From positions 1 through 64,000 of the IMG/VR virus record IMGVR_UViG_3300023179_009086: DNA of 64,000 bases. The stretch is one strand, 5' to 3'. Below the pieces are notes generated by a model. The model saw nothing but the letters and a program-made list of their open reading frames with translations. It was not told where the DNA came from and searched no databases. Below are positions 1 through 22,115 of this stretch, one piece after another. A program made the position numbers and the translations under genes. The first letter of the stretch is position 1, and each line of letters opens with the position of its first letter. This stretch comes from a virus.

Positions 1-511
1 CTGCTTGATTAACTTTTTCTTTAAATTCTGGAGAATTATTGTATTTATTCTGAATGGAAGGAAACTTTCTTAGAGTAACTAGAGCTTCTTCAATAGGATG
101 AATTATTTCTTCAGGTTTCTTTTTATCCTCAATATATCTTAGGTAGAGCCAGGAGAGATAATCTTCGTTTAAGTTGGAAAGATCAATCTCAGCATATTTC
201 TCTTTAATTTTTTCAGATAATTCTTCAATTTTAGTTTTAGGCTTAGATTCAGTAGCTTCTTGAATTAATTTTTTTAATTCTTCAAAAGTAGGAGGTAGAG
301 GTGGATTTAAGTTTCCTTCTTCTAAAGTAGTATTTGGATCACTAGTTTTAATAAACTTGTTGTAGTACTGTACAGCTAGACCTGCAGCGGCTCTTTCACC
401 TGGATACTTGGAGATAAAGATAGTTCTTAAGGCATCCAAGTCTTTAGATTTGGTGGCAGCTAACTTAGTTAACAGATTGGAAAAATATAATTGTCTTTCA
501 GATTTTAACAT
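1..511 (-). CDS. Hypothetical protein, runs off the window edge (MLKSERQLYFSNLLTKLAATKSK...)
   Basis: ATG at 511-509 with GGAG just upstream. I read the frame open by hand for most of its length. It is missing from the ORF track, presumably because its stop lies outside the window. Confidence 0.7.
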   Translation of the reverse strand, partial: MLKSERQLYFSNLLTKLAATKSKDLDALRTIFISKYPGERAAAGLAVQYYNKFIKTSDPNTTLEEGNLNPPLPPTFEELKKLIQEATESKPKTKIEELSEKIKEKYAEIDLSNLNEDYLSWLYLRYIEDKKKPEEIIHPIEEALVTLRKFPSIQNKYNNSPEFKEKVNQA

Positions 512-606: not shown

Positions 607-1512
607 TTATCCTTCGCAGGCCAGGCATTCTGATCCATCTGCTAGTTGTTTTAGATCAATCTCTTCAATTATATTTCTTTCTATTTTTTGAGAAACTTTG
701 TCTGCTTTAATAATTTTTTCCGATCTGCAGTAATAAAGAGTTTTTAAACCTTTCTTCCATGCAGTAAAGTGTACCGCATGAAGATATTTAATTCCGGTAT
801 CGGGCTTGAAAAATACATTGACTGACTGCCCCTGATCAATGAACTGCTGTCTATCTGCCGCATGATCAATTACCCATCTTTGGTCAATTTCGATTGCTGT
901 CTTAAATACAGATTTTGTCCAATCATCAAAAATATCTAAACTTTGAATAGAGCCGCCACTTGAAATAATACTTGACCAAATATCTTGATAATCAAGTTTT
1001 GAGCTCTTAGAACACATATCTTTTATTATTTGATCTAGATACCTATTTTTATTCATATACGAACCTGACAGCGTATCCTGTCTGTAACAATTTGCTTTAA
1101 ACGGTTCTATAGAAGGCGAGGTATTTCCTAGAATAATTGAGGATGAGTTATGTGTCACCACCCCATTTTCAAGAACATAATCATGTGTCGTTGGAACTTC
1201 AATATCAAAAGTTGGCATAATTTCGCCTGTCGCCATCACAGATTCGACATACCAGCCATTTGTAAGCTCCATTCCTGAAATGAGCTCAACCACCTTAACC
1301 CAATCATGCTCTTTGGTTAGAAACTTATGATTTGCCGTACATCTTATAGAGAAGACGGACTCTCCCTTAATCATTATTAAATCAAGAACTTCCACATATC
1401 CGTTGAAATAAAATTTATTTACATCAGCAATCCCTTCCGATGTTTTTATAGAAATATTATTATCAGACTCAAACCATTGCGGCTGCTTCATCTTCACATT
1501 TTTAACTTTCAT
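607..1512 (-). CDS. nrdA: Ribonucleotide reductase class Ia alpha subunit, C-terminal fragment fused to a 122-aa C-intein
   Basis: After ...VVTHN the protein reads SSSIILGNTSPSIEP, QQFIDQGQSVN, GLKTLYYCRS (tyrosine pair) and a terminal CLACEG redox cysteine pair. Own AGGA SD 8 nt before the ATG. Confidence 0.93.
   Translation of the reverse strand: MKVKNVKMKQPQWFESDNNISIKTSEGIADVNKFYFNGYVEVLDLIMIKGESVFSIRCTANHKFLTKEHDWVKVVELISGMELTNGWYVESVMATGEIMPTFDIEVPTTHDYVLENGVVTHNSSSIILGNTSPSIEPFKANCYRQDTLSGSYMNKNRYLDQIIKDMCSKSSKLDYQDIWSSIISSGGSIQSLDIFDDWTKSVFKTAIEIDQRWVIDHAADRQQFIDQGQSVNVFFKPDTGIKYLHAVHFTAWKKGLKTLYYCRSEKIIKADKVSQKIERNIIEEIDLKQLADGSECLACEG
1147..1512 (-). mobile_element. C-terminal half of a split intein (122 aa) carrying blocks B, F and G
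   Basis: IRCTANHKFL (block B TxxH), TFDIEV (block F), NGVVTHN|S (block G, +1 Ser). Confidence 0.88.
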
Positions 1513-1536
1513 TGTTTATTTCCTAGTATTTTGCGT

Positions 1537-4500
1537 TTAATTTATTAATATAATTTCGTCATTTTCCATTAACTCTGATGCAATAATGGATATTTCTGAG
1601 CCATCCCTACTTACCTTTAGGCTTTGACCAATATGAATTTCTTTGGATGTGCCATCATCGAAGTCAACAGTAAGATACTCGAATGATTTCATGTCGACAC
1701 CAAGCTTGGCGCCTATATCGTCAAATGATATTGATTCTCCATCACTAGAAATAATCTTTGTATCAGAAGTTACGCAAGCATTTGGCGCAATCGCAAGGAT
1801 GTGACTAAATCTTTTTCCTGTTCCAACGGCATCGGGAGCTTCACCCCTTTCCTTTCCAAGCTCAAGGTCGGCAATATCTAATAAACCCCTAATTTGTTTA
1901 AACATTCTAATATTGGTTGATTTTGCCAAAGCACTTTCAAAAGGAATTCCTTTTTGCTGCAAATAAGCATGAAACCCAAGCGCCCCAATTCCTATAGACC
2001 TCTCTCTCATGGCGGAGAATTTAGCCCTTGATATTGACTCTGGAGCATTTTCAATAAAGTAAGTTAAAACATTGTCAAGCATTTCTGCAACATCTTTTAA
2101 GAAAAGAGGATCATCTTTCCACTGATCATATGTCTCTAGATTTAACGATGAAAGACAGCAAACCGCTGTTCTCTCATCTGATGTGGGAAGAATTATCTCC
2201 GAACAATTGTGTGTGATGACGCCATTACATACCCAGAGATGCTGGTCTGTATGAACTCCCACACAATAAACATCCTGTTTTCCCGCTGGTTCTATTTTTG
2301 TAATTTTTGAAGATTTTTCTGAATTATTTTCAAATTTATCGTTTGCAACATAAGGTGAGCCGACTATATGATTAATCTTGTAAATACTTGAATATTCGGA
2401 GATACAAACTGAGTTTGTATCGTCATCAATGTTTGATGTTACTCCAAGATTCGAAAGAATAAGTTGAAGGCTTGCAGCATCTTCTTTGAATGAGCAAATA
2501 CTTATTTTTGATACAAAGATATGCTTGTCAAAATCTATGGATGTAGATGATGACAAAATGATCTTGCTTATGTAAGAAATATGTGTTTGTTTATCTGAAT
2601 TCCAAAGCCAATTTGGAATCATCATGTTTTCTATTGAATGATTTTCTGAAAAGTACTCTCTTACTTTTTCTATATTATTCTGCGTTCCAAATACGCCCTC
2701 ATGTGACTGAATAAATATATCATCTCCGATGTTCAATTCTGAAAGTGCAATCGCTTCAACTTTTCCGTTCTTCTTTGCCAGAATCTTATGATACCCAGTG
2801 ACAGTATGAGTCATGCCATTGTCGAGAGTAACTTTGAATGTCTCTGCATTTCTCTCAATTAGATTCATCTTCGTGGACTTTACAGGGCCATCATTTGATG
2901 CAAGAATAAGATCCTCTCCAAGATCATAAAGCTCTTTTGCAGTCAACATTCCAAAATTAGTTGGGACTCTCTGATCTCCTGAGACGCAGAGATTACTCTG
3001 TCGAACTTGTAGGCCTTTACTTTTTAGAAAATCTGGGAGAAAGCGATTTGATGTATCGATAAAGTGAATGTATGGCTCTCCTGTCTGCATTCTCAGCTCT
3101 AAAATCTTTTGCCACAATTCTTTCGCAGACACAACCTCCTTCACCTGACCGGTGTGTGGCTCTTTTAGTTCCCATGAGTCATCAACATTAGGATCTATCA
3201 TAGATCTCTCAATAATCTTCATAAAACTATCAGATATATTTATTCCATGGTGGAGATTTAGACATCTCATGTTTTGATCGCCTGTTGGCTTTCTCATTTC
3301 AAGAAATATAGGAACGTCAGGATGAGAAATATCCAGATAAGCGGCGTAAGATCCTCTCCGTGTATTTCCGCAAACAATTGGCGTTTCTCCCGCTCTAACT
3401 ACAATCTTTCCGGTCCGGACCACACAACAATGGACCATTCCTTCATACTGAATATGTTCTTTTCTTAACTTTTCAAGAAGGAAGTAATTCTTACTCCCAA
3501 CAAAAACTGTATACATATCTTGCCTTGGCTTGTCTCTTTTTCTATGAAAGATTCTGCTCTGTCGGCCAGCAATTACAGAAAGCGCCTGAACAATCGATGC
3601 GTTTTCTTTTATAGTGCTAAAGTAAATAAAACTATGCTGCCTGTTTCTTGTTGCATCCCATTCCGCAATTTCTTCAAGCATGGCGGAGGCATCCTCTTGG
3701 GTAATTCTTGACAAATCAATCCAAGAGAGACTCTTTAGCCCATCAAAATTCATACCTTTAGCATAAACGCTAACAGTGCCGTCTAAATTGTTAGCCTGCC
3801 ATGTTTCCAAATCTAGATTTGATAGAATTTCTGTTATTCTTGAAATCTTTCTTTCTTTTTTTAGATGGAATTCACATACGCCGTCCGCCCTAATATGAGC
3901 ATCTGCCTGTATTGCAATTTTCAGGCGAGTAAGTGCATCTAGTTTGGATTGTGATCTAGACTTCTTTGCTGCGTTCCAGAACCTAACTTCATTATGAAAC
4001 TTCAATTCTGATGCACGAACCTTCTCTAGTTTTTTTGACCAGCCAGATTTAACTTTTCTCTCAACAACCATAGAGTGATCTTCCGTTACTGAAATTTCTA
4101 TTCCTCTAGTTTTGTTATAGAATTTGATTATATTCCCATTATATTTTTCAGATACTATTTCTAGTGGTTTTTCAAAACAGATTCCTCCATCATCATCGAT
4201 CACTGCAACATCGTCATTTTTAGTCAGTAGCTCCATAGGCTTCCAGCCTGAAGATGTCAGTATTTCTGTTCCGGGAACATAGCAATTCCCTTGTTTGAAA
4301 GCCAGGGATGAAGCATCATAAATCTTTAGGTGTGGCATAACACCAGTAGATTTGTCACCAGCCGACCTAATCCCAAAACCCAAACCAACGCCGCCGCCAA
4401 GCATTGATAACCAGTTTGTCTCAGAAAGAGTGTCTACCAGACCCTTGGCTGTATCAGGAATCCATGATAGAAAACAACTAATTGGTAAACCATACTTAGT

Positions 4501-4734
4501 TCTACCAAAGGACAGAATTGGGGTGGAATAGCTCAACCAATGCTTGCTAGCATAATCATAGAGTCTCTGGGCATGATCTTGATTTGAGGAGAATTGCTTT
4601 GAAACAAAAGCAAACCTCTGCTGTGGTGAGGTTTCTTCATCTCTCATGTATGATTCTTTTAACCTTTTTAGGCCTAACTCATCAAATAAAGAGTCTCTAC
4701 TATAATCTACATTAATTCCAAGATAACTAGACAT
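1537..4734 (-). CDS. nrdA: Ribonucleotide reductase class Ia alpha subunit, N-terminal fragment with two cis inteins and an N-intein
   Basis: STPILS, LPISCFL, GGGVG, QGN|TRRG, TGEPYI, SNL|CSEI, AVCCLSSLNL, ERSIGIGALG, AIAPNA. No ATP cone. The exteins sum to about 597 aa with the downstream fragment. Confidence 0.93.
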   Translation of the reverse strand: MSSYLGINVDYSRDSLFDELGLKRLKESYMRDEETSPQQRFAFVSKQFSSNQDHAQRLYDYASKHWLSYSTPILSFGRTKYGLPISCFLSWIPDTAKGLVDTLSETNWLSMLGGGVGLGFGIRSAGDKSTGVMPHLKIYDASSLAFKQGNCYVPGTEILTSSGWKPMELLTKNDDVAVIDDDGGICFEKPLEIVSEKYNGNIIKFYNKTRGIEISVTEDHSMVVERKVKSGWSKKLEKVRASELKFHNEVRFWNAAKKSRSQSKLDALTRLKIAIQADAHIRADGVCEFHLKKERKISRITEILSNLDLETWQANNLDGTVSVYAKGMNFDGLKSLSWIDLSRITQEDASAMLEEIAEWDATRNRQHSFIYFSTIKENASIVQALSVIAGRQSRIFHRKRDKPRQDMYTVFVGSKNYFLLEKLRKEHIQYEGMVHCCVVRTGKIVVRAGETPIVCGNTRRGSYAAYLDISHPDVPIFLEMRKPTGDQNMRCLNLHHGINISDSFMKIIERSMIDPNVDDSWELKEPHTGQVKEVVSAKELWQKILELRMQTGEPYIHFIDTSNRFLPDFLKSKGLQVRQSNLCVSGDQRVPTNFGMLTAKELYDLGEDLILASNDGPVKSTKMNLIERNAETFKVTLDNGMTHTVTGYHKILAKKNGKVEAIALSELNIGDDIFIQSHEGVFGTQNNIEKVREYFSENHSIENMMIPNWLWNSDKQTHISYISKIILSSSTSIDFDKHIFVSKISICSFKEDAASLQLILSNLGVTSNIDDDTNSVCISEYSSIYKINHIVGSPYVANDKFENNSEKSSKITKIEPAGKQDVYCVGVHTDQHLWVCNGVITHNCSEIILPTSDERTAVCCLSSLNLETYDQWKDDPLFLKDVAEMLDNVLTYFIENAPESISRAKFSAMRERSIGIGALGFHAYLQQKGIPFESALAKSTNIRMFKQIRGLLDIADLELGKERGEAPDAVGTGKRFSHILAIAPNACVTSDTKIISSDGESISFDDIGAKLGVDMKSFEYLTVDFDDGTSKEIHIGQSLKVSRDGSEISIIASELMENDEIILIN
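1540..1776 (-). mobile_element. N-terminal half of a split intein (79 aa)
   Basis: Starts CVTSDTKIISSDG (block A) right after APNA and ends at the TAA. No TxxH and no terminal HN. Confidence 0.85.
2206..2988 (-). mobile_element. Cis intein (261 aa) inserted at the thiyl-radical Cys of NrdA; endonuclease region probably degenerate
   Basis: SNL|CVSGDQRV ... TVTGYHKI ... DVYCV ... NGVITHN|CSEI. The central region has only remnant LAGLIDADG-like segments (IPNWLWNS, LQLILSNLGV). Confidence 0.9.
3364..4284 (-). mobile_element. Cis intein (307 aa) with a LAGLIDADG-like endonuclease domain
   Basis: QGN|CYVPGTEILT ... VTEDHSM ... IAIQADAH ... EIAEWDAT ... PIVCGN|TRRG. Penultimate residue is Gly, +1 is Thr. 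Confidence 0.9.
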
Positions 4735-4751: not shown

Positions 4752-5291
4752 TTATGATTCTAATTCTGGATTATACTGTTCCGATATTTGTCCATCTTTC
4801 CAAATTCTAACTAAATTTGTTTCTTCAGAAAGTGTAAATACTGATATAACATCTTTTCTCATTGAAAATGAGGCTGCGCTTATATGTCTAGTTCCACATC
4901 CATCTGGAACATCCAAAATTGGATTATCTACTGTTAGATAAATCTTACTACCTAATATTTGTCCATCTCTATTGATAACTATAGATCCATCATTGTTCTC
5001 TTTTATAAGAGAATGAAATTCTTTTTCAAAGGAACTAATGGAAATATTTAAATATTTTTGAATTGGATTTAATCCAATTTGCCTCATTCCTGGCACAATA
5101 TGATCTCGGTAAAAATCAAAATTACCAAAAACTATTAGGCAGCCAATATTGGCTGCTGTTTTATGAGAGGAATTTGAAATCTCAATTAAAGAATTATAGA
5201 TCTTCTTTTCTACTTTTTGAAACTCTCTTGCAGAGTTAAATTGAAAAGAAAAATCTACAGATGATACCTTCTGTAAATCTTCTGTAGTCAT
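4752..5291 (-). CDS. Stand-alone diadenylate cyclase (DAC/DisA_N) domain protein
   Basis: IGCLIVFG, NDGSIVINRDGQI (DGA-like motif), GCGTRHISAA (RHR-like motif), LSEET..VRIWKDG. No TM segment or regulatory domain. Confidence 0.8.
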   Translation of the reverse strand: MTTEDLQKVSSVDFSFQFNSAREFQKVEKKIYNSLIEISNSSHKTAANIGCLIVFGNFDFYRDHIVPGMRQIGLNPIQKYLNISISSFEKEFHSLIKENNDGSIVINRDGQILGSKIYLTVDNPILDVPDGCGTRHISAASFSMRKDVISVFTLSEETNLVRIWKDGQISEQYNPELES

Positions 5292-5299
5292 TTGTTATC

Positions 5300-6682
5300 C
5301 TATCCGCTAAATCCATCCTCATCATAAGTAAGATGAACTTCTTCATTTTTAGCATTTATAGTCTGAATATTAATTGGATTTTTCCATATTTCATAAATAT
5401 ATTCACATACTTTTTCTATATGTTTGATATCCAAAGTTCCAATATGGGTACTTTCATGTTTTAATTGTAAAAATCCATCTTCCACACCGACGATGCTAAC
5501 CAGGGGTGCTCGATAGTCATAGAGATTTTTAACCAGGGACTCTGCAACATCATCTACATCAGTAGATACGACCTCTACTATTTCATCAAAATTATTTTTA
5601 TAATGTTTATAAGTAAACAACTCAAGTTCTTGTACTAATTCTTTAGTTAGATATCCTTTTACAAAAGAAATATCATCCTCTTCCTCTACTACTTCAAAAA
5701 CTTTTTGAAGTCCATTTATATTAGATTCTCCTTTTTGATATTTTTCATCCCATCTTTTTTTAATATCATTAAAAATAGAAAAACCCAAAAAATATGGATT
5801 AATATTTAATTTATTAGATCCAGGTTGAACTACTCTTTCATGTACTTTACAAAATTCTAAATGTTCTGATTGAGAAGTTAAATCAGTTTCATACATTAAA
5901 TCTGCATGGCAAAAACTTGCAAATCCTTCATTCATAATTTTTGTCATATATTGTGGATAAAAATAATAAGATTCTTCTCTAATTATTTCTAAAACATCTT
6001 TTTTCCATGATTCTAAATCTTTAGAATAATTTACCAAAAACCAAATAAGATCATATTCAGGATGTGGTGGAAAAGTGTCATTTAAAACATGCATTTTTTT
6101 AGAAGTAGCTGGAAGTCCGTGCATATCCGCAAATTCTCCATTGGAGATTTCTTTTATAAGAGTTCTTTTTTTTGGATATGGTTTTCTATGAATTCCTTTG
6201 TGCCAATCAATATGTTTATCTATTGCAAATCCTATATCCATTACTCTTTCTACTTCTTTTAAGCCATAATGAGCAATATACTCCTCTATTCTCTGAGCTC
6301 TTTCTGCAGCATGATAAACCATTTTATTATCTGTTTGTTTAAACAAAAAATTATTTTTAAAAAAATGAACATGTCCAAAAACATGGGCAGCTACCATTAG
6401 ATTAACAATATCTGAATTTGTATCTAATAAAAAAGCATAAGAAGGATCATTATTTAAAACTACTTCATAAATTTTTGAGTGTCCCATTTCTCCTTGCATT
6501 TTTTGATAATCATAAGATTGCCCATAAGACCAATGTCTAGCTCTAGTAGGTAATCCATAACTAACTACTTCTAACATTACTTCATTAGGAACTATTTCAA
6601 AATTAACTGGATAAAAGTTTAGTCCAAAATTTTTAGCCAATTTTTCCATTTCAACAATTTTTTCTGTTAATGTTTTAGACAT
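5300..6682 (-). CDS. spoVR: SpoVR/YcgB family protein
   Basis: GLPTRARHWSYG, IYEVVLNNDP, AHVFGHVHFFKNN, YFYPQYMTKIMNEGFASFCH, INPYFLGF. Start moved to the ATG at 6682 (GGA SD). Confidence 0.92.
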   Translation of the reverse strand: MSKTLTEKIVEMEKLAKNFGLNFYPVNFEIVPNEVMLEVVSYGLPTRARHWSYGQSYDYQKMQGEMGHSKIYEVVLNNDPSYAFLLDTNSDIVNLMVAAHVFGHVHFFKNNFLFKQTDNKMVYHAAERAQRIEEYIAHYGLKEVERVMDIGFAIDKHIDWHKGIHRKPYPKKRTLIKEISNGEFADMHGLPATSKKMHVLNDTFPPHPEYDLIWFLVNYSKDLESWKKDVLEIIREESYYFYPQYMTKIMNEGFASFCHADLMYETDLTSQSEHLEFCKVHERVVQPGSNKLNINPYFLGFSIFNDIKKRWDEKYQKGESNINGLQKVFEVVEEEDDISFVKGYLTKELVQELELFTYKHYKNNFDEIVEVVSTDVDDVAESLVKNLYDYRAPLVSIVGVEDGFLQLKHESTHIGTLDIKHIEKVCEYIYEIWKNPINIQTINAKNEEVHLTYDEDGFSG

Positions 6683-7871
6683 TTTTATCCTTTTTTGCAA
6701 TACCATCTATATTAAAAAACATTTTTAATGCATCAAAGACTTCATCTTTAGAATTTACTTTCATAGTTACAAATCTTGTTCTTTTAATTTTTTTCTTTAA
6801 AATATCATGAAGAGTATCATAACCAGATTTATTCCATTGAATTTCTCTATCATTAGGGGCTATCTCTCCGTACCCTATGGCAGTACATAGTGGCAATAAT
6901 TTTTCAATATATTTAATACAAAGATTATTGTCTTCTCCCCAATTATCACCATCAGAGAATTCAAAAACATAATTATTCCAATATTCAACAGGGTGATGAT
7001 TTTGTATATGTTCGTACGCTAATTTAAAAGCAGTACTACAATTTGTACCACCAGAGCTTGAGATTTTAAAAAATTCTTTTTCCTCTACAATAAAAGCTTT
7101 AGAATCGTGAGCTATAAAAACAAAATCTATTTTTTTATATCTTCTTTTTAAAAATTGAACCATCCAAAAATAAAAACTTTTGGCAATATAAGTTTTTTCG
7201 TTATTCATGGATCCACTTCGATCCATCATAATATATACTGCAGCATTAGAATGATATTCTCTAACAATATCATAATTTTTATATCTTAAATCATCTTGAT
7301 TAAAGTTTGCAATTTTGGCTTCACCTTTTGCAGCATTTCTTTTTAGATTTTGAAGAATAGTTTTTTTCAAATCTAAGTTAGGCATAATGCCTTTTTTATC
7401 AATTGATGCAAATTCTTCATTTTCAATTTCAATAACAGAAGTTTGTTTTGGCTCCATCCATGGAAGGTTGAGTTCTTCCAACATAATGTCTACCAATTCA
7501 TCTATTGTAACGTCTGCATCAAAAGTTCTTTCACCTTCTTTATTTCCAGCTCCATCTCCGCTGGATTCTTCTGGCTGGCCACTTTTTATTTTAAATTTAT
7601 CACCCTTACCAGCTTTAACACCCTGACCGGTAGCATCTTGAGAATTCAATTTGCCATATTTGATTTTATATTGATCAAGAAATCTGATGGGAACTTTAAT
7701 TTTTTTATCCCCATCGGATGTAATGATATTATATTCGGTAATAAGATCTTTGCCATTTTTACGAATGGCATCTTTTACCAACTCTTTATGTCTATCTGAG
7801 TCTCTCTTACCTCTTCTTTTTAGCTTCCAGATATCAGAGAGATTCTCAGAGGATTTGGAAGTAGAGCTCAT
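6675..7871 (-). CDS. yeaH: YeaH/YhbH (DUF444) vWA-domain protein
   Basis: DSDRHKELVKDAI, EELNLP, DDLRYK, MIDAS DRSGSM, SSGGT, FSDGDNW. Lies between prkA and spoVR. Confidence 0.9.
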   Translation of the reverse strand: MSSTSKSSENLSDIWKLKRRGKRDSDRHKELVKDAIRKNGKDLITEYNIITSDGDKKIKVPIRFLDQYKIKYGKLNSQDATGQGVKAGKGDKFKIKSGQPEESSGDGAGNKEGERTFDADVTIDELVDIMLEELNLPWMEPKQTSVIEIENEEFASIDKKGIMPNLDLKKTILQNLKRNAAKGEAKIANFNQDDLRYKNYDIVREYHSNAAVYIMMDRSGSMNNEKTYIAKSFYFWMVQFLKRRYKKIDFVFIAHDSKAFIVEEKEFFKISSSGGTNCSTAFKLAYEHIQNHHPVEYWNNYVFEFSDGDNWGEDNNLCIKYIEKLLPLCTAIGYGEIAPNDREIQWNKSGYDTLHDILKKKIKRTRFVTMKVNSKDEVFDALKMFFNIDGIAKKDKNV

Positions 7872-9781
7872 TAGTTTCTAGCCATTAATGAACTAACATA
7901 TCTTAGTAATTTGTTAGCAGACTCTGCTGTATATCCATGTTTTTCACATAGAGTATTAATAACTACATTAATTCTTTTAAGCTCTTCCTCATCTGGATTT
8001 CTAGTGCTTACAGTCAATCTGATGACATCTTGTCTTTCATCAAAGAGTTGCTTCTCTAAAGCTTCCTTTAGTTTTGGATGATCTTTGTAATTATAAGAAC
8101 CATTACTACTTTTGGCGCTTCTAAGCATTTTTCTATAGATTTCTTGTCTAAATGACTTTTTACCGCTCTCAGTAATTCCAACTTTTTCTTCAATGGATCT
8201 CATAAGTCTTTCATTTGGATCTTTTAAATTACCCCACTCATCTTCAATTTTAGTTCCATCTAGGAAAGCTCCAACATGATCCATATAATTATTGAGAAGA
8301 TTCTGAAGCTCTTCTTCAAAATTAACAAAGAAAGCTTTTTGAACTTCGCTCTTAGCAAGTTTTGAGTATTCTTCAATAACAGATGTCATAATATTTTCAA
8401 GTCTTTCAATTTCTTTAGAATCAAGTTTTGGATTAGTTTTAAATCCATCTCTAATAGATCTAATTACATCAATAGGAGTAATGCAAGTTGCACCTTCTTG
8501 TGCTAAAGTAGAAGAAATTCTATTAACAATATATCTAGGTGAAATTCCAGACATGCCTTCTGTATCAAATTCTTTCTTTAGAAGAGCAACATCTCCATGG
8601 GAAAAACCTTCGACTTCGTCACCATTATAGAGCCTCATTTTATTAATTGGTGTTGCCGCAGAGTTTTTGGACTCTTTAAGTCTTGATAGAATTGAGAACA
8701 TTGCTGCACAATAAAGTGTATATGGAGCAATATGTACTGATTTAAGATCTGAATTTTTAACTAATTTTTCATAAATCTTAACTTCATCGCTTACATTGAG
8801 ATTATAAGGAACTTTTACAACAATAATTCTATCATGTAAAGCTTCCATTTCTTCTTTTGCTAGAAATCTTTTATATTCGGTCTCATTGCTATGAGCAAGC
8901 AAAAATTCATCAGCATAGATGAGTGGAAATCTTCCAGTTTTAATATTCTTTTCTTGAGCAAGAGTTAATAAAACATAAAGAAATTTTTGATCTACCTTTA
9001 GCATTTCTACGAACTCCATCATGCCTCTGTTGGCTATATTGAGTTCTCCATCAAATCTAAAAGCTCTAGGGTCTGACTCCGATCCATACTCTCCAATCTT
9101 ACTCAAATCCATAGATCCTACTAGCTCGGAAATATCTTGACTCTTTTTATCTGAAGGAACAAAAGTTCCTATTCCAACTCTAGATTGCTCAGAGAAAATA
9201 ACTCTTTTAACTGGTAGATCTAAAAAGTTTCCATTGTACTGTTCTTTTAACACTAAATCCATAAGTGGACTTAACTGTCCTTCTATTTTAATTCCATAAT
9301 TTTCTAGCAAAGATTTTCTCAGATCATTTGGAATAGCCCAAAGTGGATCCTCATGCATAGGAGACTCGGAAAGAGCATAAATGGCACCCTCTGGAGTTTT
9401 TGAAAACTCCTCCATGCCTCTTTTTAACATAATAGCCAATTGTGACTTACCAGAAGAAGTTGGTCCGTATAGTAAAAGTATTCTTCTTGAAACCTCAGAG
9501 CCAGCCGCAGCAGCCCTTAAATAAGACATAATTTGCTCAATGGAATCTTCTGCTCCAAAGATTTCATTAGCAAAAAAATTATATTTAGTAATTTGTCCAG
9601 ATTCGCCTCTCTCCACTCCGGCATGCTCAATCATCTTTAAAACTCTAGAATGAGAGCTTATATTTAAGGCTGGATTCTCTATTACCATTTCCAAATAGTC
9701 TTTTAAGGTACCAGACCAAGAAAGTTCATTAGTTTTCTTGATATGCTTTGTCATTTCTTGGATAAGTTTGGCTGACTTCAT
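7871..9781 (-). CDS. prkA: PrkA/YeaG family AAA+ ATPase (annotated serine kinase family)
   Basis: RILLLYGPTSSGKS (Walker A), SPMHEDPL, SQDISELVG, SESDPRAF.FDGELNIANRGMMEFVEMLK, EALHDRI, GMSGISPR. TAATG coupling to yeaH. Confidence 0.93.
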   Translation of the reverse strand: MKSAKLIQEMTKHIKKTNELSWSGTLKDYLEMVIENPALNISSHSRVLKMIEHAGVERGESGQITKYNFFANEIFGAEDSIEQIMSYLRAAAAGSEVSRRILLLYGPTSSGKSQLAIMLKRGMEEFSKTPEGAIYALSESPMHEDPLWAIPNDLRKSLLENYGIKIEGQLSPLMDLVLKEQYNGNFLDLPVKRVIFSEQSRVGIGTFVPSDKKSQDISELVGSMDLSKIGEYGSESDPRAFRFDGELNIANRGMMEFVEMLKVDQKFLYVLLTLAQEKNIKTGRFPLIYADEFLLAHSNETEYKRFLAKEEMEALHDRIIVVKVPYNLNVSDEVKIYEKLVKNSDLKSVHIAPYTLYCAAMFSILSRLKESKNSAATPINKMRLYNGDEVEGFSHGDVALLKKEFDTEGMSGISPRYIVNRISSTLAQEGATCITPIDVIRSIRDGFKTNPKLDSKEIERLENIMTSVIEEYSKLAKSEVQKAFFVNFEEELQNLLNNYMDHVGAFLDGTKIEDEWGNLKDPNERLMRSIEEKVGITESGKKSFRQEIYRKMLRSAKSSNGSYNYKDHPKLKEALEKQLFDERQDVIRLTVSTRNPDEEELKRINVVINTLCEKHGYTAESANKLLRYVSSLMARN

Positions 9782-20531: not shown

Positions 20532-22115
20532 TTAAATTATTTTTTTATACAATCTTTGTCCAGCATCATATATTTTTGTCCATTTTAATTCTTCTGCATA
20601 TTCTTTTTCAGATAAACATCTGGAATCCATATTTGCTCTACAAGCAAGTCGATTATATGTTGCTTTATTATCGGTCCATTTCCAACTCAAAATATCATGA
20701 TCCTTTTTAAATCCATGTTGGAGAAGAAAGCTTCCAACTCCATATCTAAGATCTACCCAATAATGAATTTCATTATATTTGCCAAATAATTTTTTTTCAA
20801 GATATGATAAGAGTTTGGAAAAGCCTCCAACAACTACTGTATTTAGTGCTGATGAGAGTCTTTCTATTATCAATTTCTTTCCTACAACTCTATATGAGAG
20901 ACAAGTCAAAATTTCATTATTATATTTTAAACATATATTTTTATATTTTCCACTTCCAGGTCCCATTAGATGGGTTCTTTCATAAAATGCTGATGCATCA
21001 GCAGAATTAATAATTTCTATTTTTGTTTTTCTTGCAAAAATTTTATTAGAAGTTTTTCCCAAAGAATTATCAACTATTGATTTAATTATATCAATCTTTG
21101 TCTCTATTTCATCAGATCTAAATTGAAAAATTCTAAAATTAAATAATTCATATTTTTCTCTCATAGAAAAATGATAATTCTTATTTTTAACTACATTATC
21201 TGAATGCCAATATAAACCATCGGCATTCAGATAATGTGATTCAGAAAGTTTAAAATCAGGTCTATAATTAATAATATCTTTATCTATTTCATTTATTTTT
21301 TTATTCCATTTTTGAATTCCAAAGGTATTTTCTATAATTTTTTCTATATTAGTTTTTGAAAAAATAAAATTAGAAATAAAATTATTAATATCTTCATCTG
21401 TATAATTTTCTTTATTTCTAATCCAATGACTAAACCAATATAGTGAAATATTAAATGTTTTAGAGAATTCAATTTTAGAATAAAATTTACCTTTATAATT
21501 TACTCCATATTTTTCCGCATATTTTTTTTTAGATTTATTTGCAATTTCTTTATTCATAGCAGGAGCAATTGCACCATATTTTTGGATATTTGTTTCTTCT
21601 ACTTTTTTTCTAATTTCAGGAAGAGACATTACCCATTCAACGCCATATTTCTTTAAATAAGTTTCTTTTTGCTTTGAAATTGCTAGATCTGATGCAGAAG
21701 CATGTTCAACACCATATCTTTCTAAAGATGTTTGTTTAAACTTTTCTTTTATTTCTTCACTTTGTAGTGGACTGTTTACCCCATATGAATCAAAAAGAGA
21801 TTTTTCTTGTTTTTGTTTAAACTCATCAATCTGCATTGCATTTTCTGAGCCATACTTTTCTTTCATAGTTGATTTTAATTTTAAAATTCTAGTTTCATCT
21901 ACTTTTTTAGCATTTTCTTTAGATCTTTTTAAATTAAATTTTTTTACATATTTGGCAATAACATTGATAGATGAATCAACTTCTTCAGCAATTTCTTTTA
22001 GAGTTTTATTTTCAATTATATACTTCTCTTCAAGCCAATGCTTATCTCTATAAGGTGGACTATAGTTTTTACCAAATCTAAAAGTTTCTAGTCTTCTATC
22101 TTTTTTCTCTTCCAT
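20532..22115 (-). CDS. Free-standing putative homing endonuclease (Hef-like): HTH, 23-aa repeats, Vsr/PD-(D/E)xK-like nuclease, C-terminal GNAT-like domain
   Basis: N-terminal WLEEKY...LKEIAEEV HTH; six xxYG repeats; RPDF...NADGLYWHS; KIFARKT...THLMG...VVGGFSKLL...VDLRYG. Confidence 0.65.
   Translation of the reverse strand: MEEKKDRRLETFRFGKNYSPPYRDKHWLEEKYIIENKTLKEIAEEVDSSINVIAKYVKKFNLKRSKENAKKVDETRILKLKSTMKEKYGSENAMQIDEFKQKQEKSLFDSYGVNSPLQSEEIKEKFKQTSLERYGVEHASASDLAISKQKETYLKKYGVEWVMSLPEIRKKVEETNIQKYGAIAPAMNKEIANKSKKKYAEKYGVNYKGKFYSKIEFSKTFNISLYWFSHWIRNKENYTDEDINNFISNFIFSKTNIEKIIENTFGIQKWNKKINEIDKDIINYRPDFKLSESHYLNADGLYWHSDNVVKNKNYHFSMREKYELFNFRIFQFRSDEIETKIDIIKSIVDNSLGKTSNKIFARKTKIEIINSADASAFYERTHLMGPGSGKYKNICLKYNNEILTCLSYRVVGKKLIIERLSSALNTVVVGGFSKLLSYLEKKLFGKYNEIHYWVDLRYGVGSFLLQHGFKKDHDILSWKWTDNKATYNRLACRANMDSRCLSEKEYAEELKWTKIYDAGQRLYKKII
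21495..21875 (-). repeat. Six degenerate 69-nt (23-aa) coding repeats, consensus about K.T...KYGVE
   Basis: YG codons recur at exactly 69-nt spacing (about 21505, 21574, 21643, 21712, 21781, 21850). Confidence 0.85.

Follow-up and report, generated by a model that had tools for sequence, protein, structure and literature searches.

Organisation of the split nrdA locus

The stretch analysed here, positions 1 to 64,000 of the virus record IMGVR_UViG_3300023179_009086 (the window, to which all coordinates refer), contains an nrdA gene that is divided over two genes within its third intein. All parts of nrdA lie on the minus strand. The N-terminal gene (1537-4734) encodes 1065 amino acids (aa) followed by a TAA stop and matches the Pfam families Ribonuc_red_lgN, Ribonuc_red_lgC, Intein_splicing and Hint. 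The C-terminal gene (607-1512) encodes 301 aa, and only 24 nucleotides (nt) separate the two.

The N-terminal half of the third intein (IntN, 1540-1776, 79 aa) starts with Cys1 directly after AIAPNA. Its catalytic part (1678-1776, 33 aa) comprises Cys1, block A and a short helix and is the only piece of the active Hint domain on the N-terminal gene. The remaining 46 aa (1540-1677, net charge -7), which we call the clasp tail, resemble a degenerate block B-N4 of a canonical IntN, with TxxH changed to GQSL. The C-terminal half (IntC, 1147-1512, 122 aa) ends in THN, followed by SSS. Its first 11 aa (1480-1512, net charge +4) make up the clasp head, which seems to be equivalent to the opening beta-strand of a canonical IntC; some 8 of these residues are extra, and the last few correspond to the native loop of the contiguous mini-inteins described below. 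The rest of the active intein on this gene (1147-1479) carries the N2 hairpin, block B (TANH), N4, block F and block G (THN). It is followed by Ser+1 and the NrdA C-extein (607-1146, 179 aa plus stop; Pfam Ribonuc_red_lgC, profile positions 390-522).

The N-terminal gene ends in a first TAA (1537-1539), and the in-frame spacer (1513-1536, 24 nt) contains a second (1516-1518). Both stops share one frame with the ATG of the C-terminal gene (1510-1512), and an AGGAAA Shine-Dalgarno sequence (1519-1524) is located 6 nt upstream of this ATG. A preliminary description of the window, made from the letters alone, had reported the third intein as divided between two genes in exactly this manner, with the 24-nt distance, the two in-frame TAA stops and the separate Shine-Dalgarno sequence, and all of these were found in place.

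The junction is not an assembly artefact. Contigs of three other lake metagenome runs, from two other studies, bridge 1513-1539 without an indel, and the three single-nucleotide polymorphisms of these contigs fall outside this segment. A search for proteins of similar length with the N-half returned only one near-copy (99% identical and equally 1065 aa long), from another JGI data set. Megablast of the locus against GenBank phages gave no match, and tblastn of the N-half against phages gave one match only, at chance level.

Active intein and class membership

Against the Pfam family Intein_splicing, IntC matched only from profile position 37 onward, and its best sequence match in the PDB was the atypically split intein VidaL (residues 12-121, E 3e-4), so that IntC holds block B (T59..H62), block F and block G. 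An N-half with block A only and a C-half with blocks B, F and G had indeed been reported in the preliminary description. The IntN tail had no sequence match in Pfam or the PDB, where phmmer of the N-half found nothing. Cys1 is invariant among all N-halves of the family. In IntC the TANH motif occupies residues 59-62, and T59, H62, D103, H110, H121 and N122 are invariant, with Ser following THN.

The third intein has all the residues that mark a class 1 split intein (Cys1, TxxH, blocks F and G, a penultimate His, a terminal Asn and Ser+1), and its halves lie on separate genes, as judged from the two stops, the Shine-Dalgarno sequence and the ATG. Its break, between block A (N1) and N2 and with blocks B, F and G in IntC, is that of the atypical TerL and VidaL inteins. 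These have a short, bare IntN of approximately 16-37 aa, whereas the IntN found here is 79 aa long and its residues 34-79 form a separate conserved module. Canonical split inteins break after block B/N4 and have an IntC of approximately 35-50 aa; here, the catalytic block B is located in the 122-aa IntC, and a break at the canonical place is seen only in what appears to be a dead nested copy, not in the active intein. Of the endonuclease gene that stands between the halves of fractured genes, the window has a 14-nt relic only. We take the third intein of this freshwater phage nrdA to be a naturally split class 1 (Cys1/Ser+1) intein that is broken after block A. This reading, together with the whole explanation of the clasp given below, is assigned a probability of about 0.72.

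Relatives at the same insertion site

IntC was searched against 1.8 billion representative proteins, and the N-halves of distant relatives were taken from scans of viral and metagenome contigs. The relatives of IntC were of two kinds, split ones that begin at IntC residue 1 and contiguous inteins at the same nrdA site. The contiguous mini-inteins (P0006, P0008, P0012, L004 and others, 140-161 aa) are without the 46-aa tail and approximately 8 aa of the head, and pass directly from the 33-aa block-A part to the W-containing strand that comes after the head in IntC. The first 33 aa of P0006 and L004 correspond one to one to the catalytic part of IntN. As had been predicted, removal of tail and head from the window intein leaves a mini-intein, of approximately 144 aa.

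In the split forms, every IntC starts with M-K/P-h-K-K-h-K, and the readable N-genes end in a tail of 42-46 aa with one conserved pattern, the exception being L027 with an aberrant 34-aa end. Around 19 protein clusters carry this IntN; they end at the same point of the tail and all are fragments of the ribonucleotide reductase (RNR) alpha subunit. The tails of the sampled split lineages are only about 30% identical, yet the D/G/R/A/D positions are conserved.

Tail and head were also found fused in frame in contiguous inteins, in three lineages (L008/L020, L015/L016 and L021/L024) and in P0131, P0134 and P0135. Two contiguous clasp forms deviate, P0142 (733 aa) by an internal deletion in the clasp and P0135 (1167 aa) by an altered linker; both look like decay of the module after re-fusion of the halves. 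A further protein, P0066 (486 aa), has the same type of IntC with an MKVKKI head, but a different, longer RNR-like C-extein with a Cys-rich, zinc-ribbon-like tail; on account of this C-extein, the clasp-split intein may occur in another RNR class too.

Homology of the clasp to a canonical split-intein junction

Two relatives at the same nrdA site are split at the canonical place. In both, IntN is 114 aa long. L030 (2396-4215) has in addition an HNH-type open reading frame (ORF) and an IntC of 36 aa; in L036 (622-2400) there is a homologue of the endonuclease that occupies the clasp site in other relatives (BLASTP 5e-22). For a third canonical relative, P0144, the N-gene product alone is at hand, with a canonical-type IntN ending in ...ELNENDDIIEK. 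Since the ORF of L030 is HNH-type and that of L036 Vsr-like (putative), the fractures at the canonical site of this intein appear to go back to two endonuclease families.

A profile of ten tails was compared with the canonical-split and mini relatives using hhalign. It matched block B-N4 over 44 of 46 columns and co-terminally with the C-terminus of IntN (probability 80%, E 1.5e-5). In a column-shuffle control, none of 200 shuffles reached the real score of 30.8 (null 9.8 ± 1.8, maximum 15.9). Compared with single sequences, the tail gave E values of 3e-8 for L030, 5e-8 for P0024 and 1e-5 for P0020, and sub-threshold profile matches of the tail to inteins in the PDB were in the same register. 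A Pfam scan of the clasp members found no family. The canonical TANH aligns to GQSL in the window tail and to xYDD in most relatives.

The head, in turn, resembles the start of a canonical IntC: MKVKNVKMKQP in the window and MKIKSIKKPEK in the clasp form L014 compare with MKIKSIKKSEK in L030. The net charge of the tails ranges from -1 to -8 and that of the heads from +2 to +4, the window (-7/+4) having the same values as the canonical L030 (-7/+4). The preliminary description had held that the tail mimics the end of a normal IntN with TxxH lost, that the head mimics a normal IntC start and that the charges of the two are complementary; these comparisons bear it out on each point.

The tail is under purifying selection. 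Its proportion of nonsynonymous differences (pN) was lower than that of synonymous differences (pS) in 6 of 6 pairs, and the ratio of nonsynonymous to synonymous rates (dN/dS) in the four unsaturated pairs was 0.18-0.59, against 0.08-0.34 for the core.

Compared with all clasp-bearing cores, its own included, the tail scored at noise level (E 0.011-0.63; 0.15 for its own block B region). As it matches inteins of another subgroup and gives noise with its own core, the tail would have been imported and not duplicated internally. On these alignments, the clasp (approximately 57 aa) is probably a catalytically dead copy of a canonical junction, consisting of block B-N4, stop, start and the first IntC strand, and its source appears to be a different subgroup of the same intein family.

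Predicted structure of the clasp

Structure models were made on the contiguous-clasp relative L021, and not on the window sequence. The AlphaFold2 model of L021, from an alignment of 26 rows, had a predicted local distance difference test score (pLDDT) of 93 and a predicted template modelling score (pTM) of 0.82. Complete Hint folds (gp41-1, Npu DnaE and others) matched it with Z scores of approximately 16 and root-mean-square deviations of 1.7-2.4 Å, and complete mini-inteins span the model from residue 1 to 197. Since the complete folds cover 119-138 of the 197 residues, approximately 60 residues are extra. In the model, the joined halves form a complete Hint fold.

Modelled alone, the clasp of L021 (59 aa) is predicted to adopt the same six strands (pLDDT 86, pTM 0.63) and to be compact, with the head strand included. 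The top 21 matches listed by Foldseek were all intein or Hedgehog Hint domains (template modelling score 0.55-0.73 on the query, E 0.06-0.9), and in a VIA search against representatives the top 25 matches were all Hint domains as well, with Z scores up to 8.8. The matched ranges (gp41-1 46-104, NrdJ-1 63-128 and PI-PfuI 82..429) straddle the canonical split or endonuclease-insertion site. The idea of the preliminary description that the clasp is an intein remnant across the canonical split is thus in agreement with the model.

Under the pseudo-two-fold symmetry of the Hint fold, the canonical site corresponds to a loop near residue 35 (bioRxiv 10.1101/546465). Coming after residue 33, the clasp lies in or near this loop according to the numbering and to HMMER alignments.

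Endonuclease in relatives and its loss from the window

In L001, L007, L013, L022/L023 and L025-L027 stop and start are at the same positions, and a gap of 1.1-1.4 kb between the halves is filled by an ORF of 364-453 aa. Matches to phrog_22677, a family without an assigned function, were obtained for the gap ORFs of L001 and L007 and for a remnant of 116 aa in L003, and the other gap ORFs align with these. KYG-type motifs recur in the gap ORF, and its C-terminal part is a nuclease domain. The only PDB match of a gap-ORF profile was a weak one to 3r3p (I-Bth0305I, E 0.021), and DUF559 and MTES_1575 were found below threshold. We regard the gap ORF as a putative Vsr-like homing endonuclease, of the same family as the ORF at the canonical site in L036.

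Of these relatives, L013 has an IntC that is 96% identical to that of the window. In L013, the stop of the 444-aa endonuclease ORF overlaps the ATG of IntC, and the last 14 nt of the window spacer (1513-1526), CTAGGAAATAAACA followed by ATG, are identical to the 3' end of this ORF. The window is therefore a recent endonuclease-loss allele that is still split, in other words a fractured gene that has lost its endonuclease. The earlier observation that no endonuclease lies between the halves was correct for the window, but this is a recent loss and not the original state, for L013 keeps the gene.

Window and L013 are approximately 98-99% identical on both sides of a mosaic patch of 90 nt (1537-1626), which comprises the last 29 codons of the tail and the stop and contains 38 mismatches; the flanks have 0-3 mismatches per 30 nt. 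The patch covers the distal part of the tail and adjoins the endonuclease insertion point, and looks like a conversion tract tied to the gain or loss of the endonuclease.

Directly after the IntN stop, L013 (1114-1180) has a 21-bp hairpin (-24.8 kcal/mol, z -8.2) that covers the ribosome-binding site of the endonuclease, GGUAGGAG, and contains the motif UAUUAAUA. It resembles the translational-control hairpins of fractured genes and of mobE of phage Aeh1. Both the overlap of endonuclease and IntC and a hairpin at the ribosome-binding site are known from fractured genes (PMC2677866).

Elsewhere in the window (20532-22115, minus strand), a free-standing ORF of 527 aa is located between glmS and gmd, with KYG-type repeats and a PD...DGxYWH nuclease-like motif. 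It was considered as the lost endonuclease and rejected, at an hhalign probability of 2% with the similarity confined to the KYG-type repeats. Given this weak, repeat-only similarity it is probably a different homing-endonuclease-like cassette.

Evolution of the clasp states

In a tree of the core region the clasp-bearing inteins are not one clade, and clasp and mini forms are interleaved; the mini-intein L004, for example, is the sister of the clasp-split L003 (support 100/98), and every contiguous-clasp form groups closely with a split sister. Gain and loss of endonuclease and clasp would thus have happened repeatedly, and the contiguous-clasp forms, being so close to their split sisters, look like fusions after endonuclease loss. 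The preliminary description had considered contiguous inteins with the same segments as speaking against its proposal; such inteins do exist, but they are the sisters of split forms. The internal deletion in the clasp of P0142 fits a module that is required by split forms and no longer by fused ones. Side by side, the family contains mini-inteins, canonical split inteins, clasp with endonuclease, clasp-split forms without endonuclease, re-fused clasps and decaying clasps.

More tentatively, the clasp may have been the cargo of a homing endonuclease cassette, consisting of dead block B-N4 tail, stop, endonuclease gene, start and IntC strand, that derives from a canonical split intein. Such a cassette, carrying its own docking junction, could settle at a second site in otherwise contiguous mini-inteins and leave the host gene functional, and this second site would lie near the pseudo-symmetric mate of the canonical site. 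This cassette scenario, which we hold to be somewhat doubtful, has several observations in its favour: the endonuclease family is shared by the canonical and clasp sites, the tail stems from another subgroup, clasp and mini forms interleave on the core tree, and the 90-nt patch tracks the presence or absence of the endonuclease between window and L013. If the scenario holds, the cassette would be a selfish element that brings along its own repair kit, and one that could be moved to any mini-intein to split it after block A.

Proposed mechanism and alternative explanations

It is proposed that the two polypeptides would be translated separately, after which the basic head strand would pair with the acidic tail and complete a small half-Hint beta-module. 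This module would keep the block-A piece (33 aa) attached to the Hint domain of the C-half, which lacks only that piece; the fold would then close, and trans-splicing would give intact NrdA. We consider it likely that tail and head re-form the canonical capture interface in this way, as a separate half-Hint module that enables trans-splicing, a step that we infer. A complex prediction of the window tail (residues 34-79) with IntC gave a score of 0.05, against a mark of 0.32, and counts neither for nor against binding.

Several points weigh against the explanation of the clasp as an imported docking junction. Anatomy, homology, predicted fold, evolutionary states and purifying selection were established here, whereas docking of tail and head and splicing were inferred. 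The highest Z score of the VIA search (8.8) is close to values that are possible between unrelated small beta folds, and the models were made on L021, whose tail is only 28-31% identical to that of the window. The tail is without detectable similarity to its own block B, and the significance of its matches rests on few canonical and mini relatives. In addition, the natural atypical split inteins AceL-TerL, GOS-TerL and VidaL work without such a module, and the deletion in the contiguous P0142 means that the module is dispensable once the halves are fused.

In the best of the alternatives, tail and head are a neutral scar, leftovers of endonuclease insertion without a role, and the halves join only by insertion of the block-A strands as in the TerL and VidaL inteins. 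Known atypical split inteins need no clasp (PMC11766414), the clasp of P0142 is partly deleted, and the dN/dS of the tail exceeds that of the core. However, the module has been kept in every sampled split lineage at approximately 30% identity, with the D/G/R/A/D positions and the charge complementarity conserved, pN is below pS in all pairs, and the clasp is predicted to be a compact domain that includes the head strand. A neutral scar is therefore considered unlikely.

Very unlikely is an ordinary insert domain, that is, an older accessory domain, for instance a DNA-binding one, that was split by the endonuclease and did not derive from a split-intein junction. The presence of the whole module in the contiguous L008/L020, L015/L016, L021/L024, P0131, P0134 and P0135 and the lack of a matching Pfam family would fit such a domain. 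It leaves unexplained, however, that the tail is co-terminal with canonical IntN ends and broken in the same loop, that the head matches the canonical IntC start, and that nearly all structural matches are Hint domains and extend over the canonical split site; moreover, the contiguous-clasp forms are close sisters of split forms and look like fusions that followed loss.

Slightly less probable still is a tandem duplication of block B-N4 within the host intein as the source of the tail. The Hint fold, with its pseudo-two-fold symmetry, is prone to repeats (bioRxiv 10.1101/546465), but the tail gave noise with every clasp-bearing core and E values of 3e-8 to 1e-5 with L030, P0024 and P0020. Finally, a broken or mis-assembled gene, or read-through of the stops into one contiguous protein, is hardly credible: the two stops and the ATG do share one frame, but independent contigs have the same junction, all catalytic residues are intact with a core dN/dS of 0.08-0.34, and relatives that share stop position and start carry a whole gene in a gap of 1.1-1.4 kb, which ruled out stop read-through or an alternative genetic code.

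Other features of the nrdA region

The N-terminal gene contains two further, contiguous inteins, intein 1 at 3364-4284 and intein 2 at 2206-2988 (both minus strand). Intein 2 is inserted at the thiyl-radical Cys site (SNL|C...THN|CSEI), where presence and absence are polymorphic: the 74%-related phage L001 has an uninterrupted SNLCSEI at this site, and shares intein 1 and the split intein 3 with the window. The upstream neighbours of nrdA (4752-9781, minus strand) are a 179-aa DAC-like gene and a SpoVR-like gene (468 aa).

Comparison with known systems

Split inteins are key tools for protein ligation, and atypical ones with a tiny N-terminal piece are prized but weak binders. In the window, a high-affinity, charge-zippered canonical junction appears to have been grafted onto an atypical break point, which would address this weak binding. 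If the clasp docks the halves, it would be a ready-made and possibly transferable module for splitting mini-inteins after block A, and it might supply new orthogonal pairs. The different states that are found side by side in this family also make the life cycle of endonucleases in inteins and the origin of atypical split sites directly testable. A full-text literature search found no description of a clasp at an atypical split site, and no paper that pairs "split intein" with "nested intein".

Inteins of the same family at the same nrdA site are present in the Campylobacter phages CP220, NCTC12673 and PC14, as in the metagenomic P0006 and L004. These contiguous mini-inteins are 27-38% identical to the window over IntC residues 10-122 and, unlike the window, consist of a single ORF without tail/head module and without endonuclease. 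In Campylobacter phage CPt10 (NC_027996.1 / FN667789.1, approximately 121100-121444) the annotation of NC_027996.1 calls nrdA disrupted in comparison with CP220; the gene concerned is the one that carries the contiguous relative of the window intein.

AceL-TerL (25 + 104 aa), GOS-TerL (37 + 115 aa) and VidaL are natural atypical split inteins (PMC11766414; PDB 6vgv). The window intein is like them in having a break that separates block A from the other parts of the Hint fold, in its long IntC with blocks B, F and G, and in its origin from a phage or metagenome. They have a short, bare block-A IntN, whereas that of the window is 79 aa long and has an extra, predicted folded module (46 aa plus the IntC head); the host gene is also different, nrdA in the window and terL for the TerL inteins.

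Fractured genes in which a canonical split intein is combined with a free-standing Vsr-like or GIY-YIG endonuclease have been described for gp41-1, NrdJ-1 and NrdA-2 (Dassa 2009, PMC2677866). As in these, the relatives L001, L007, L013 and L022-L027 have an endonuclease ORF between the halves with its 3' end overlapping the start of IntC, and an acidic IntN and basic IntC are common to fractured genes and the window family. A split allele without endonuclease, like that of the window, is known as well, namely gp41-7 (PMC2677866). The insertion site in nrdA is different, APNA|SSS in the window and the thiyl-radical Cys site in the fractured genes, and so is the break in the active intein, after block A in the window and after N4 in the fractured genes; the canonical junction is present in the window only as an apparently dead nested copy.

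The closest concept is that of the NrdA tails of phage Aeh1, where the tails of NrdA-a and NrdA-b originated with the insertion of mobE (Crona 2011, PMC3045599). In both cases nrdA has been split by a mobile endonuclease, and in Aeh1 the short tails at the break are needed for assembly. The Aeh1 halves, however, contain no intein, are not spliced and associate non-covalently, whereas the tails in the window are proposed to dock an intein that ligates the exteins.

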